Shown in pieces: positions 11,163-31,024 of a stretch of DNA of 32,000 nucleotides; position 1 is the first letter of the stretch, and each line of letters begins with the position of its first letter. The notes under the pieces are model-generated. The model worked only from the letters and a program-made list of their open reading frames with translations, searched no databases and was not told where the DNA came from. Position numbers and translations under genes: made by a program. This DNA is from Candidatus Saganbacteria bacterium (GTDB taxonomy: Bacteria > Margulisbacteria > WOR-1 > JAKLHX01), in the NCBI GenBank assembly GCA_026387835.1, contig JAPLKZ010000013.1:60001-92000 (forward strand), written 5' to 3'.

Positions 11163-12602
11163 ATGATAATCAAGACCGATCAGGACACGATAAGACCATT
11201 CCTCGAGGATGCTTCAGGCCTGACCGGAGCGCACACGGATAAAGTATTCCTTGCAGAAAATACCGGAGAAGTTTCCGAATTGTTAAAAGAATGCTCTTCA
11301 AAAAATATTACCGTTACTGTCTCCGGCGGGGGCACGGGCGTGACAGGAGGCAGGCTTCCGTTTGAAGGAGTCGTTCTCGCGACGGACAGATTGAACAGAA
11401 TACTTGACCTTAAGCCTGGCTCGATAGTTGTCCAGTCCGGCGTGCCGATAACGGAAATTCATAAAGCAGCCGGTTCTATCGGATATTTTTACCCTCCGGA
11501 CGCTACGGAATGGACGGCTTTTATCGGGGGGAATATTGCCACAAACGCTTCGGGAGCGAGGACGTTTAAATACGGGGCGACGAGAAAATATATAAAGAGG
11601 ATAAAAGTTGTCCTGAGTAATGGAGATATTATCGATGTCGAAAGAGGCAGACTATTAGCAAAGAGTAATATTCTCGAAATCCGAAATACGAAATCCGAAA
11701 TTCGAAACAAATTCGAAATCCCAAATTATAAAATCCCAAATATAAAAAATGCGGCGGGGTATTATTCCAGGAAGAACATGGACCTGATCGATCTGTTCAT
11801 CGGAAGCGAAGGCACTCTCGGAGTGATCGCTGAAGCGGAATTAAGTTTGCTGAAAAAAGAGGGGTTTGTTTTCGCCTGTTTTTCATTCTTCAACAGATTG
11901 AACGACGCGCTCAACTTTGTGGCCGAAGCGAAAAAATGCGATGCGCTCGCGATAGAATTCTTTGATGCCAGGGCTCTGGACCTCTTGCGGACAAAATATC
12001 TTAACATGCCGAAAGCCGCTGCCTGCGTGTTCTTTGAGGAAGAGATCACTACGGAAAAAGAAAAAGATTATCTTGAAAGATGGGGAAACCTGCTGGAAAA
12101 ACACAATGTATCTTTGGACGACGTCTGGACATCGGAGACTCCCGAAAAAGCGCAGGAGTTCAAGGATATGAGACATTCTGTCCCCGAGCTTGTGAACGAG
12201 ATCGTAAAGAAAAGAGGCTTTCCGAAACTGGGGACGGATATTGCCGTGCCGGACAGGGCTTTTGCCGAAATGTTCGGTCTTTACGAAAAGACTTTGTTGT
12301 CCTCGAATATCGACAGCCTGATATTCGGGCATATCGGGGATAACCACCTTCACGTGAATATGCTTCCTAAAGACAGCGATGAGGCCGAAAAGGTCAAGGA
12401 CATCTATATTTCTTTTGTGAGGAGAGCAATAAGCCTGGGAGGGACCGTTTCGGCCGAGCACGGGATAGGGAAGATCAAGCACAGGTTCCTGAAAGAGATG
12501 TATGGCGACAGAGGGATACTGGAAATGACAAGGGTCAAGAAAAGTCTGGACCCGGATCTTATCTTAGGTTTGGGGAATATCTTTCCGAAGGAACTGCTTT
12601 AA
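11163..12602 (+). CDS. FAD-linked oxidase (GlcD / D-lactate dehydrogenase family)
   Basis: FAD_binding_4-type VTVSGGGTGVTGG, LFIGSEGTLGVI and C-terminal SAEHGIGKIK. It carries a repeat-derived insert (next feature). Confidence 0.85.
   Translation: MIIKTDQDTIRPFLEDASGLTGAHTDKVFLAENTGEVSELLKECSSKNITVTVSGGGTGVTGGRLPFEGVVLATDRLNRILDLKPGSIVVQSGVPITEIHKAAGSIGYFYPPDATEWTAFIGGNIATNASGARTFKYGATRKYIKRIKVVLSNGDIIDVERGRLLAKSNILEIRNTKSEIRNKFEIPNYKIPNIKNAAGYYSRKNMDLIDLFIGSEGTLGVIAEAELSLLKKEGFVFACFSFFNRLNDALNFVAEAKKCDALAIEFFDARALDLLRTKYLNMPKAAACVFFEEEITTEKEKDYLERWGNLLEKHNVSLDDVWTSETPEKAQEFKDMRHSVPELVNEIVKKRGFPKLGTDIAVPDRAFAEMFGLYEKTLLSSNIDSLIFGHIGDNHLHVNMLPKDSDEAEKVKDIYISFVRRAISLGGTVSAEHGIGKIKHRFLKEMYGDRGILEMTRVKKSLDPDLILGLGNIFPKELL
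11673..11750 (+). repeat. Heptamer-based repeat (CGAAATN units) in frame inside the FAD oxidase
   Basis: The DNA reads cgaaatc cgaaata cgaaatc cgaaatt cgaaac aaattcgaaatc ccaaatt ataaaatc ccaaata and translates to LEIRNTKSEIRNKFEIPNYKIPNIKN. Confidence 0.7.
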
Positions 12603-12773: not shown

Positions 12774-13694
12774 ATGCGTGAATATATCGTCCCGAAAGAA
12801 TACGAACATTTAAGGCTTGATCTTTTTCTCGCGAAAAAGCTCCCGTCGATGAGCAGGTCGTTCGTTCAGAAACTTATAAAAAGCGGTCAGGTGAAGGTCA
12901 GGGGGAAGATCGACAGGAAGGCCTCCCGCGAACTTATCCATAACGACACAGTTGAAGTAGATATCCCTCCCATGAAAAGGAATGAATCTGTTCCGGAAGA
13001 CATCCCTCTGGATATAGTCTATGAGGACGACCAGCTAATCGTGATAAACAAACCTTCCGGGATGGTGGTCCATCCCGCGCACGGCAATAGGACGGGGACC
13101 CTTGTTAACGCTTTGCTCCACCACTGCAAAGATCTATCGGGTATAGGTGGCGTAGAACGGCCGGGGATCGTTCACCGACTGGATAAAGACACATCAGGGG
13201 TCATGGTCATCGCAAAAACGGATCAAACTCACAGGTATCTTGCGAACCTTTTCAAAAACCGGCAGATCACAAAAAAATATCTCGCGCTGGTACACGGAAA
13301 TGTTAAAGATGATTCGGGGACTATCATCGCTTCGATAGGCAGAAGCCCGTCCGACAGGAAAAAGATGGCGGTTATCGAGATAAGAAATGAAAAAGACAAG
13401 GCATTGAACGCTAATAAACCAAGAAAATGCAAGACAAGGCAGGCGATCACTCATTATCAGGTTCTTAAAAGGAATAAAAGCACTACTTTGCTCGAATTAA
13501 AACTTGAGACCGGAAGGACGCACCAGATAAGGGTCCATCTAGCGCACATTCATCATCCGATAGTTGGGGACAAGGTTTATGGTCTTAAGAAGGACAAGGC
13601 GGCGGAGATGGCACTTCACAGTTATTATCTAAGCTTTGTGCATCCGGTCACTGGGGAGCTTGTTGAGTTCAAGAGAGAGAAAGAGCTGAAGTAA
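12774..13694 (+). CDS. rluD: 23S rRNA pseudouridine synthase, RluA/RluD family
   Basis: S4-like N-terminus (RLDLFLAKKL), catalytic HRLDKDTSGVMVIAK, and THQIRVHL. The start is set at ATG 12774 (MREYIVPKEY); the ORF track begins at TTG 12729. Confidence 0.88.
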   Translation: MREYIVPKEYEHLRLDLFLAKKLPSMSRSFVQKLIKSGQVKVRGKIDRKASRELIHNDTVEVDIPPMKRNESVPEDIPLDIVYEDDQLIVINKPSGMVVHPAHGNRTGTLVNALLHHCKDLSGIGGVERPGIVHRLDKDTSGVMVIAKTDQTHRYLANLFKNRQITKKYLALVHGNVKDDSGTIIASIGRSPSDRKKMAVIEIRNEKDKALNANKPRKCKTRQAITHYQVLKRNKSTTLLELKLETGRTHQIRVHLAHIHHPIVGDKVYGLKKDKAAEMALHSYYLSFVHPVTGELVEFKREKELK

Positions 13695-15605: not shown

Positions 15606-16091
15606 ATGCGGACACTCGGAATAGACCCGGGAACGGCCACGACGGGATTCGGGGTCATCGATGAGAACGATAATAAACTTTCACTGGTAGATTATGGCTG
15701 TATAAAAACATCCCCTAAAAACACAGCTTCTGACAGGCTGAAATCAATTTCCTCCGAGTTAAAAAAGATCATCGATAAATTTAAACCCGAAAATGTGGCT
15801 GTGGAGCAGTTGTTCTTCGCGGCTAATTCCAAAACCGCGATAAAAGTAGGAGAGGCGAGGGGGGTCATTTTGCTGACTGCGGCTCAAGCCGGCGTGAAAA
15901 TATCGGAGTATACGCCGCTTCAAGTCAAACAAGCCCTAACAGGGTACGGAAGGGCTGACAAAAAACAGATACAATATATGGTCAAAAATTTGCTAAAATG
16001 CAAGGAAATACCGAAGCCGGACGATGCGGCGGATGCTCTGGCAATAGCGATCTGCCACATTAATTCCAGAAAGCTGAAGGAGCTGAGATGA
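15606..16091 (+). CDS. ruvC: Holliday junction resolvase RuvC
   Basis: LGIDPGTATTGFGVI, VEQLFF and DAADALAIAICH catalytic-acid motifs; 161 aa. Confidence 0.92.
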   Translation: MRTLGIDPGTATTGFGVIDENDNKLSLVDYGCIKTSPKNTASDRLKSISSELKKIIDKFKPENVAVEQLFFAANSKTAIKVGEARGVILLTAAQAGVKISEYTPLQVKQALTGYGRADKKQIQYMVKNLLKCKEIPKPDDAADALAIAICHINSRKLKELR

Positions 16092-20053: not shown

Positions 20054-20090
20054 GCATTTTGAATTTCGCGCTTCGAATTTCGAATTTTTA
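20054..20090 (-). repeat. Heptamer repeat copy filling the pdxA-rsmA intergenic spacer
   Basis: The minus strand reads taaaaattc gaaattc gaagcgc gaaattc aaaatgc ATG. It runs from the pdxA stop codon to the rsmA start codon. Confidence 0.65.
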
Positions 20091-29872: not shown

Positions 29873-31024
29873 GTGAAAAAACGCATCGCAGTACTGGGTT
29901 CAACAGGATCTATCGGAAAGCAGGTACTGGAAGCAGTATCTGCCTTTCCTTCTTTATTTACCATAAACGGGCTTGCCACTAAAGGTTATCTCGATATTTT
30001 CAAAAAGCAGATAAAAGAATTTAAACCAAAGCATGCTATTGTCAACGATGAGAAAGGATTGATAAAAATTGCTACAGATCCCGGCACGGATATCGTAGTG
30101 ATGTCGATCGTCGGGACAGCGGGACTTCCGGCAACCATAGCCGCAATAAAAAAAGGAAAGACGATCCTTCTTGCAAGCAAAGAAATACTTGTTGCTGCCG
30201 GGGATATTGTGATGCCTCTGGCAAAGAAGTACAGAGCTAAGATTCTTCCTCTGGATAGCGAGCACAGCGCGGTATTTCAGTGTCTTGGAGGAAAATCCGA
30301 AATCCGAAGCACGAAATCCCCCTCGACTTCGCTCGGGGCAAGCGAAAAAAATTCAAAATTCAAAATTCAAAACAACAGAATAAAAAAAATAATCCTCACT
30401 GCATCAGGCGGGCCGTTCAGGGCATATTCAAAAGCCCAACTGAAAAAAGTGACCGCAAAACAGGCCCTGGCGCATCCTACATGGAAGATGGGGCCGAAAA
30501 TAACGATAGATTCTGCTACGCTGATGAACAAAGGACTTGAGGTCATTGAAGCGCATCATCTTTTCGGGGTTCCTTATGACAAGATCGAGGTCGTCGTTCA
30601 TCCGCAGAGCATAATCCATTCGATGGTGGAATTCACCGACGGCTCTATTCTTGCTCAGATGGGAGCCCCTGATATGAGGACTCCGATACAGTATGCGCTT
30701 CATTATCCTGACAGGGCACCGAAGAGCTTTGAGACCATCGATATTTCAAAAGCCGGCCAATTAACATTTGAAAAACCGGACGCGGATAGGTTTCCGTGTC
30801 TAAAGATTGCATATCAAGCGGGAAAAACAGGCGGGACCATGCCGGCCGTGATGTCCGCGGCGAACGATACTGCGGTCGAGATGTTCCTTAAAGGCAAGAT
30901 CAGGTTCACGGATATTCCGAAGATAGTTTTATCGGTAATGAAAAAGCATGAGTTTATCAGAAAACCTTCACTTGCTCAGATACTCAAAGCGGAGAAATGG
31001 GCGAGAACTGAAGCGGGTGTATAA
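29873..31024 (+). CDS. dxr: 1-deoxy-D-xylulose-5-phosphate reductoisomerase
   Basis: [33 protein letters not shown] and NKGLEVIEA motifs, with a GTG start. It contains a repeat-derived insert (next feature). Confidence 0.92.
30291..30376 (+). repeat. Heptamer repeat with GC-rich core, in frame inside dxr
   Basis: The DNA reads gaaaatc cgaaatc cgaagca cgaaatc - ccctcgacttcgctcggggcaagcg - aaaaaaattc aaaattc aaaattc aaaac. It translates to [27 protein letters not shown]. Confidence 0.7.

Follow-up and report, generated by a model that had tools for sequence, protein, structure and literature searches.

Host gene and heptamer array

We characterized a tandem array of 7-nucleotide (nt) units that lies inside the coding sequence of a flavin adenine dinucleotide (FAD)-linked oxidase of Candidatus Saganbacteria bacterium (GenBank assembly GCA_026387835.1). 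The window, that is, the whole stretch of DNA analyzed, comprises 32,000 nt (contig JAPLKZ010000013.1, positions 60,001 to 92,000 of the forward strand) and lies on contig C9 of a 1.5-Mb metagenome-assembled genome of 13 contigs, hereafter G000. Positions are those of the window unless a contig is named, and the oxidase locus contains the following features.

11163-12602, plus strand: host gene, FAD-linked oxidase with the D-lactate/D-2-hydroxyacid dehydrogenase (VAO/GlcD) fold; 479 amino acids (aa), intact open reading frame (ORF)
11675-11708, plus strand: heptamer array proper, with the units CGAAATC, CGAAATA, CGAAATC, and CGAAATT followed by the 6-nt unit CGAAAC
11709-11750, plus strand: conserved motif segment, not insert; residues K183-N196, KFEIPNYKIPNIKN

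The array is situated between two conserved domains, FAD_binding_4 (PF01565; residues 27-159, E value of 1.5e-30) on its N-terminal side and FAD-oxidase_C (PF02913; residues 241-469, E value of 4e-35) on its C-terminal side. With the AlphaFold2 model of the oxidase (mean predicted local distance difference test [pLDDT] score of 85.3), Foldseek retrieved D-lactate and D-2-hydroxyglutarate dehydrogenases (E values of about 1e-32, template-modeling [TM] scores of 0.8), the top match being mouse D-lactate dehydrogenase (8jdt; E value of 6e-33, TM score of 0.82).

A first inspection of the letters without database searches (the sequence-only reading) had flagged the peptide LEIRNTKSEIRNKFEIPNYKIPNIKN, residues 171-196, as the product of a heptamer repeat read in frame. 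The repeat was confirmed: the sequence is as described, the 479-aa ORF is intact, and Tandem Repeats Finder (TRF) detected period 7 at 11675-11726, with 7.9 copies of the consensus CGAAATC and 77% matches. Together with the preceding CT (codon at 11673, L171), the array encodes L171-N182, LEIRNTKSEIRN, and it is followed by AAATTCGAAATCCCAAATTATAAAATCCCAAATATAAAAAAT, reaching 11750. Its units stand head to tail in at least three copies, as in heptamer arrays of the long simple sequence repeat (SSR) or short tandemly repeated repetitive (STRR) type. Overlapping TRF periods of 14 and 15 over the 3' part stem from the IPNYK/IPNIK peptide repeat. Besides, CGAAATNCGAAAT occurs six times in the window with one mismatch at most, against 0.65 expected, and none of 100 shuffles reached six.

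Palindromic structure was not detected in the array. The minimum free energy of its RNA fold was -5 kcal/mol versus a shuffle mean of -7.5 kcal/mol (z = +1.03), and 11600-11780 holds no inverted repeats except an unrelated 12-nt palindrome. The terminal inverted repeats by which miniature inverted-repeat transposable elements are recognized are likewise absent from the oxidase array, and a comparison of the locus with known RNA families returned only a chance, sub-threshold microRNA match (18 bits versus a gathering score of 82).

At the protein level, a β-hairpin is predicted by AlphaFold2, with strands 170-174 and 180-185 paired around a turn at 175-179 (pLDDT of about 79-84). In this model the two EIRN repeats would constitute the two strands, and the array would encode the hairpin tip. 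Query residues ~166-194 are absent from the solved relatives (LctD [7qh2_C], glycolate oxidase, and mouse LDHD), implying that the whole hairpin is an old insert specific to the enzyme subfamily. The array is thus predicted to sit at a hairpin tip, in a segment missing in solved homologues, where it may be surface-exposed and compatible with the fold.

Extent of the array

According to the sequence-only reading, about 78 nt of tandem heptamers encode a peptide without counterpart in the enzyme family. This stood for 11675-11708, the clean array, but not for 11709-11750, which consists of codons of a conserved motif. In an alignment of 22 orthologues (77% down to 48% identity, including Omnitrophota and Saganbacteria by source names), K183-N196 matched the family motif F-x-I-P-x-Y-x-[MI]-P-x-I-K-N, or more fully K-F-x-I-P-N-Y-x-[IM]-P-x-I-K-N. 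P187 and Y189 were nearly invariant, and P192 and K195 were invariant. Because every orthologue, also in Omnitrophota, retains the motif, 11709-11750 is not an insert, and it is only for this segment that unrelated lineages carry a homologous peptide. L171-N182, encoded by the 5' part, falls in a region of the alignment where the orthologues vary in length and sequence. The codons of the conserved segment (AAATTCG AAATCCC AAATTAT AAAATCCC AAATATA) are A-rich and roughly 7-periodic by chance and merge into the array.

Two simple accounts were ruled out by the orthologues. A 78-nt insertion is excluded, as the 3' 42 nt encode the ancestral conserved motif. Nor was the hairpin born from the array: the Omnitrophota orthologues have the motif and a hairpin of similar length (FSLKLKNKEIKIKIP), the DNA of which shows no lag-7 excess and is ordinary A-rich DNA. 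From NASG to AAGYY, the stretch spans 74 residues here versus 57-72 in array-free class members, a small net change in length.

Heptamer arrays at the same loop in related bacteria

We read the loop DNA of 32 class orthologues (Margulisiibacteriota/Saganbacteria), that is, the oxidase of relatives and of 30 genomes of the same class, and scored an array where at least 16 of 21 positions matched at lag 7 in the ~73-nt loop. A period-7 array was present in 13 of the 32, which are relatives of one class and share kinship, and the other 19 were array-free. At lags of 5, 6, 8, 9, and 10, none of the 32 reached 16/21 in the same loop. At least eight different 7-nt units were found at this loop among the lineages, including the following.

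L001: CGAAATT, five perfect units
L002: AAATCCN
L004, L005, and L008: AATGTCC, four units
L007: AATTTCC / AATTCCC
L018: AAATGAC
L022: ATTACGC
L025: AAATCCG
L029: AACTCGT
L030: GTTACTC
L032: CATTCCG

The loop peptides are radically unlike between lineages, as exemplified by KSEIRN, CPMSNVQ, RITHYALRIT, and SRYSLLV. Within genus g2, the loop of L010 is shorter than that of L011 by exactly 21 nt (three units), the sole step size that preserves the frame. The rest of the gene (~1380 nt) has only a single additional lag-7 array site, which is occupied in more distant families. This second hot spot (about residues 375-381 of the G000 oxidase) was seen in L018, L029-L032, and L035, with a translation resembling NSQLT-x-x-NSQLF; L029 and L030 carry an identical unit at both sites.

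Short tandem repeats are prone to misassembly, and the exact oxidase protein is on record from a single contig, so that an assembler or binning procedure could have created or mis-sized the repeat. We regard such an artifact as very improbable. The ORF is intact, conserved domains flank the array on both sides, and its 34 nt are shorter than the read length. Furthermore, arrays occur at the same codon positions in independent assemblies of relatives: L004 (Joint Genome Institute), L005 (Logan SRR8542065), and L008 (genome collection) have an identical array, and L002 and L003, from two samples, are identical at the array codon positions. The same array in independent assemblies argues against an assembly artifact for the phenomenon.

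Array units specific to each genome

The unit is characteristic of the genome and not of the site. By pattern search, the relative G018, whose oxidase carries AATGTCC, has roughly 25 AATKTCC-array loci and 2 CGAAATC-like loci, and in G058, whose oxidase carries AAATCCG, roughly 17 CGAAATC-type loci were counted; controls with reversed patterns gave no matches in either search. Six sites carry an array in both G000 and G018 (those in the oxidase, dxs, dxr, and nnr and the two in purL), and the array was always of the AAATC type in G000 and always of the AAT[GT]TCC type in G018. In Dxs, each of five genomes has its own element in the hairpin that lies between GKGE and IGSMV (G000 copy, contig C5, 64526-64556; relatives, L050-L053), as listed below.

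G000: (AAATCCG) x 4.4
G058: AAAATCC / GAAATCC
G018: AATNTCC
G011: ATTACAA
G019: GC-rich palindrome CCCCTCTCCCAAAGGGAGAGGGG

Four of these elements are heptamer arrays and one is a palindrome, and G018 and G019, which belong to one genus, are unlike each other.

In dxr, the site is empty in G011 and holds a clean 42-nt (six-unit) AATGTCC/AATTCCC insertion in G018; no target-site duplication beyond the repeat itself was found between the two. G018 also has arrays at sites that are empty in G000 (a 290-aa ORF and a 494-aa ORF), indicating that gains or losses occur too, and arrays without any length change relative to G000 (ligA- and coaX-like genes).

Copies in unrelated genes of the same genome

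Two look-alike copies elsewhere in the window had been noticed from the letters, and both proved real, at 30293-30372 in dxr and at 20056-20087 in the pdxA-rsmA spacer. The elements at these two places are as follows.

30291-30376, plus strand: composite sister copy in dxr, with AAATCCG-type heptamers, the GC-rich core CCCTCGACTTCGCTCGGGGCAAGCG, and AAAATTC heptamers; in-frame 27-residue peptide
20054-20090, minus strand: untranslated copy in the pdxA-rsmA spacer, AAAAATTCGAAATTCGAAGCGCGAAATTCAAAATG on the coding (minus) strand

The A-rich strand of the pdxA-rsmA copy is oriented with transcription, like that of the oxidase array. The 34-nt spacer is made wholly of the heptamer family and leaves no obvious space for a Shine-Dalgarno sequence before rsmA.

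The idea of a family dispersed across the genome was supported by in-frame copies in unrelated genes, namely, dxs, dxr, a metH-like gene, purL (two sites), nnr, and the oxidase. The other genes with in-frame arrays were identified from their sequences as tsaD, tgt, and radA in addition to dxs, the metH-like gene, purL, and nnr. A strict regular expression for GAAAT-spaced units recovered few genomic copies, and TRF with mismatch-tolerant patterns was needed.

Some of these copies are nearly identical. The dxr composite and one in the metH-like gene (contig C8, about 15950-16050, minus strand), two unrelated essential genes, match at 78 of 81 positions. The match extends over an unusual unit, CGAAGCA, and over a GC-rich core of 25 nt nested in the composite, and both copies are read in the same frame, with a peptide ending in [KT]NSKF[KQ]IQN. 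Besides, the 24-mer CGAAATCCGAAATTCGAAACAAAT (11689-11712) is identical in the oxidase and purL site 2 (contig C13), including the short CGAAAC unit. These two matches argue for exchange between loci. The CGAAAC-AAAT junction was also found in several unrelated G058 genes, and a third, more diverged composite lies in purL (C13, about 13240-13320).

The sequence-only reading had attached weight to the oxidase and dxr copies being read in the same frame and had proposed selection for frame-preserving insertion. The shared frame is of limited meaning, as a perfect heptamer run visits each of the three frames in turn. For the variant unit CGAAGCA, the translation is R-S-T in dxr and the metH-like gene and S-K-H in the oxidase of a relative (L009). 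Frame-aware insertion need not be invoked, as purifying selection alone suffices for an intact frame.

The GC-rich small repeat, CCCTCGACTTCGCTCGGGGCAAGCG and variants, has about a dozen plausible copies among 17 pattern matches genome-wide, for example, at C3 175015, C10 5232, C10 139346, and C13 13255. Its copies lie in intergenic DNA and also, in frame, within tsaD, dxr, the metH-like gene, and purL, with translations in at least two frames (TSLGAS and LRSGQA/LARGK). In G058 (loci L039, L044, and L046), a GC-rich palindrome of the TCCCCCTTATCAAGGGGGAGA type often stands right after AAATCC-type arrays, in frame within long ORFs.

It might be supposed that each lineage generated its array on the spot, slippage having expanded a native K-F-x-I-P-N proto-repeat upstream, independently and without other loci. 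The native codons (AAA TTC NAA ATC CCA AAT) already amount to about 2.5 units of AAATYCN, the array continues unbroken into the conserved motif, and the unit of every lineage resembles its own native flank, for example, AATGCCC AAT at M-P-N (L004/L008), CCCAATT (L007), GTTACTC at R-Y-S (L030), and ATTACGN at N-Y (L022). Moreover, polymerase slippage has been proposed for the excess of heptamer SSRs in bacteria (Mrazek 2007, as summarized in PMC4679880 and PMC4692102). Nevertheless, the AAATC-type unit is also present at five other G000 sites that have no K-F-x-I-P-N flank, G018 has its own unit at all six shared sites, and single-unit slippage would break the frame of an otherwise conserved gene. 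A local origin leaves unexplained the genome-specific units at six sites and the near-identical copies in unrelated genes, that is, the 24-nt identity between the oxidase and purL with its irregular short unit and the 78/81 match between dxr and the metH-like gene. We therefore consider it unlikely.

Genome-wide census and selection filters

With a TRF score of at least 40, the genome contained 37 period-7 arrays versus 2 of period 6 and 5 of period 8, and a block-shuffled genome contained no period-7 array at that score. Period 7 thus exceeded both the other periods and chance genome-wide, which is the property by which heptamer SSRs are recognized. Genes were called with a crude ORF scorer of our own (93% coding), and dxr was added manually on account of its 77-nt overlap with the next gene. 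When all units were pooled, 24 of 55 arrays were intergenic, a strong enrichment outside genes for a genome that is 93% coding; the AAATCC-type family was mostly intragenic.

Two filters were evident in the gene-internal arrays. Units with stop codons on both strands accounted for 0 of 26 arrays inside coding sequences versus 13 of 29 others (Fisher P = 5e-5). Furthermore, among the stop-free AAATC-type arrays inside genes, the sense strand was the A-rich one for all 7 arrays in G000 and for 12 of 13 in G058 (19/20 together; binomial P = 4e-5). The sense peptide is hydrophilic (KSEIRNP), and the antisense strand would give GFRISDF. In G018, about 14 of 17 intragenic AATKTCC arrays had one orientation in our judgment. 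AATGACT arrays, which have stops on both strands, are common as inverted pairs between genes and were never gene-internal. In at least 10 intergenic elements, about 30 nt separate (AATGACT)x4-5 from a following (AGTCATT)x4-5, and the elements often begin at a stop codon (e.g., C1 15271-15369, C3 110138-110223, C5 83651-83735, C6 117475-117568, and C10 24425-24524).

The arrays might be kept for a function, the EIRN hairpin having been co-opted for an oligomer or partner contact or the array acting as an on/off contingency locus. Members of a family-level clade have retained both the length of the loop and an amphipathic I-x-I pattern, the hairpin itself is predicted with a pLDDT of about 80, and heptanucleotide repeats drive phase variation in some pathogens, e.g., that of HMW1A in Haemophilus (PMC8262952). 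Against this, four or five units would be expected to slip infrequently. A functional role is the less likely because the loop peptides are unrelated between lineages, most orthologues (19/32) are array-free, and the same arrays occur in the essential single-copy genes dxs, dxr, and purL, where switching would be lethal. On balance, retention for a function appears quite improbable.

Renewal of the arrays and interpretation

Comparison with L001 bears on the age of the array. Third-position identity between the two genes is 47% at conserved four-fold codons, close to saturation, and L001 nonetheless carries 35 nt of perfect CGAAATT repeat (five units) in the same position and of the same length as in the G000 gene. 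The array is not recent, because relatives with near-saturated synonymous divergence carry an array of the same length at the same place. Undisturbed vertical inheritance of an ancient array is in turn ruled out by the five perfect units of L001 despite that divergence. Within one genus, G018 and G019 (oxidase proteins 90% identical) show one and the same G/T difference, at unit position 4, in each of the five oxidase units, with a like tendency in their purL arrays, and this uniformity is a signature of concerted change, not of independent substitutions.

Taken together, we consider it fairly probable that the oxidase array represents passenger DNA of the heptamer-SSR/STRR type, which a permissive hairpin tolerates and which slippage and/or copying between loci continually renews. 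It would be one copy of the stop-free AAATCC(G)-type family of this genome, with the A-rich strand as sense, at the variable tip of a hairpin apparently special to a subfamily of D-lactate-dehydrogenase-like flavoenzymes. Its translated product would be an amphipathic, hydrophilic hairpin (xEIRN-turn-xEIRN) replacing the ordinary hairpin of array-free orthologues and probably without a required role in catalysis. The loop may have served for long as a permissive "parking place," largely neutral with respect to its occupant, where array DNA would turn over faster than neutral decay through replication slippage and/or copying among dispersed arrays. The unit sequence would thereby track the current repeat family of the genome rather than the site, and purifying selection would purge out-of-frame lengths, stop-containing units, and the hydrophobic antisense reading.

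Several observations weigh against this interpretation. In the closest lineage, the stretch has a constant 74 residues and a recurring I-E-I-[RL]-N-x-K-x-[EK]-I-[RL]-N-K pattern, so that the peptide could now be under structural selection and not neutral. The array abuts natively heptamer-like sequence, which makes a local origin at this one site possible. In addition, the gene calls of the census are only approximate, and translation of the array is deduced from the intact ORF.

A more far-reaching account can be advanced tentatively, namely, that permissive hairpins of the oxidase, Dxs, Dxr, PurL, Nnr, and others were occupied before the families diverged, and that their units were rewritten jointly by inter-locus conversion or by an array-specific machinery, possibly linked to heptamer-ended cassettes. 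If such concerted evolution took place, the same set of protein loops would be written in a 7-nt "dialect" peculiar to each genome.

The locus offers a compact test system, in which related genomes carry different heptamer arrays in equivalent hairpins of essential enzymes. These arrays are cleaner than neutral decay permits, and their sequence tracks the genome and not the site. The route of renewal (slippage, conversion, or an element-encoded activity), the reason for period seven, and the repeat load that is tolerable inside essential genes of a streamlined 1.5-Mb genome are now approachable by standard comparative genomics together with read data. In practice, alignments, domain boundaries, and predicted structures of proteins from uncultured bacteria are distorted by such segments, which should be masked as repeat-derived and not be taken for lineage-specific functional inserts.

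Comparison with known repeats

Knowledge of heptamer repeats in bacteria dates back to 1990 and that of their excess to 2007, although we know of no accepted mechanism or role. The host phylum is the sister group of Cyanobacteria. Among the published heptamer repeats are (GGGAATC)n of Xanthomonas and GGGGA(C/T)T of Nostoc (PMC4692102) and the TAACTGA repeats of Beggiatoaceae and of cyanobacteria including Microcystis (PMC4679880). Such families have lineage-specific units, about four per array, in tens to hundreds of copies; the arrays are mostly intergenic or at gene ends, sometimes in inverted pairs, with rare intragenic copies only in the stop-free orientation (PMC4692102 and PMC4679880). 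The arrays described here resemble the heptamer long SSRs or STRRs of heterocystous cyanobacteria, Xanthomonas, Nostoc, and Beggiatoaceae in consisting of dispersed, lineage-specific tandem 7-nt units. The published families are mainly intergenic and scarce in coding regions, whereas here one stop-free family is mainly intragenic and occupies housekeeping genes in the sense orientation, at hairpin sites common to genomes with different units. In the literature searched, we found no description of a stop-free, mainly intragenic heptamer family, of heptamer arrays recurring at the same hairpins across a class, or of genome-specific units at shared sites.

The sequence-only reading had also drawn an analogy to Rickettsia palindromic elements (RPEs), which are dispersed short repeats inserted in frame in unrelated metabolic genes, translated, and considered compatible with the fold through their surface position (PMC10969869). 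The analogy is apt for the dispersed in-frame copies in several unrelated protein-coding genes, and to that extent a functional parallel may be drawn; it fails for the palindromy, as the array is not palindromic. RPEs are about 100-150 bp long and palindromic and encode a family-conserved peptide, whereas the array is 34 nt of tandem heptamers (81 nt in the largest composites), with a peptide that varies with unit and frame. An RPE is, moreover, a lineage-specific insertion, and the oxidase site is occupied across the whole class. In palindromy, size, and conserved peptide, the oxidase array thus departs from an RPE.

A further likeness is to the small dispersed repeats (SDRs) that Elhai et al. 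are said to have described in Nostocaceae in 2008 (Genome Res 18:1484, as cited in PMC3116915). These are reportedly mobile repeats of about 21-27 nt, often nested in heptamer arrays and sometimes located in genes. The GC-rich core of 25 nt that lies within the arrays of dxr, the metH-like gene, and purL is similar, whereas the oxidase copy has no nested core.

Cassettes with heptamer ends

Small cassettes with heptamer-array ends provide a last comparison. We know of no enzyme that moves such heptamer arrays, and a link between these cassettes and the arrays inside genes is no more than a lead. Cassettes with AAATCC-type ends were not detected. A gene for a 121-aa four-helix-bundle protein of the 23S rRNA intervening-sequence type (C10, 44796-45316) is bracketed by AATGTCC/AATTTCC arrays, with direct array copies on both sides and an inverted copy on the right; its AATGTCC unit is that of the intragenic array family of G018. 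A small gene of the GxxExxY/PDDEXK_3 type (C9, 105200-105820), 13 kb past the window end, has CGAAT-rich inverted ends. A PDDEXK_3 gene is also located two genes away from the oxidase in L004/L005.

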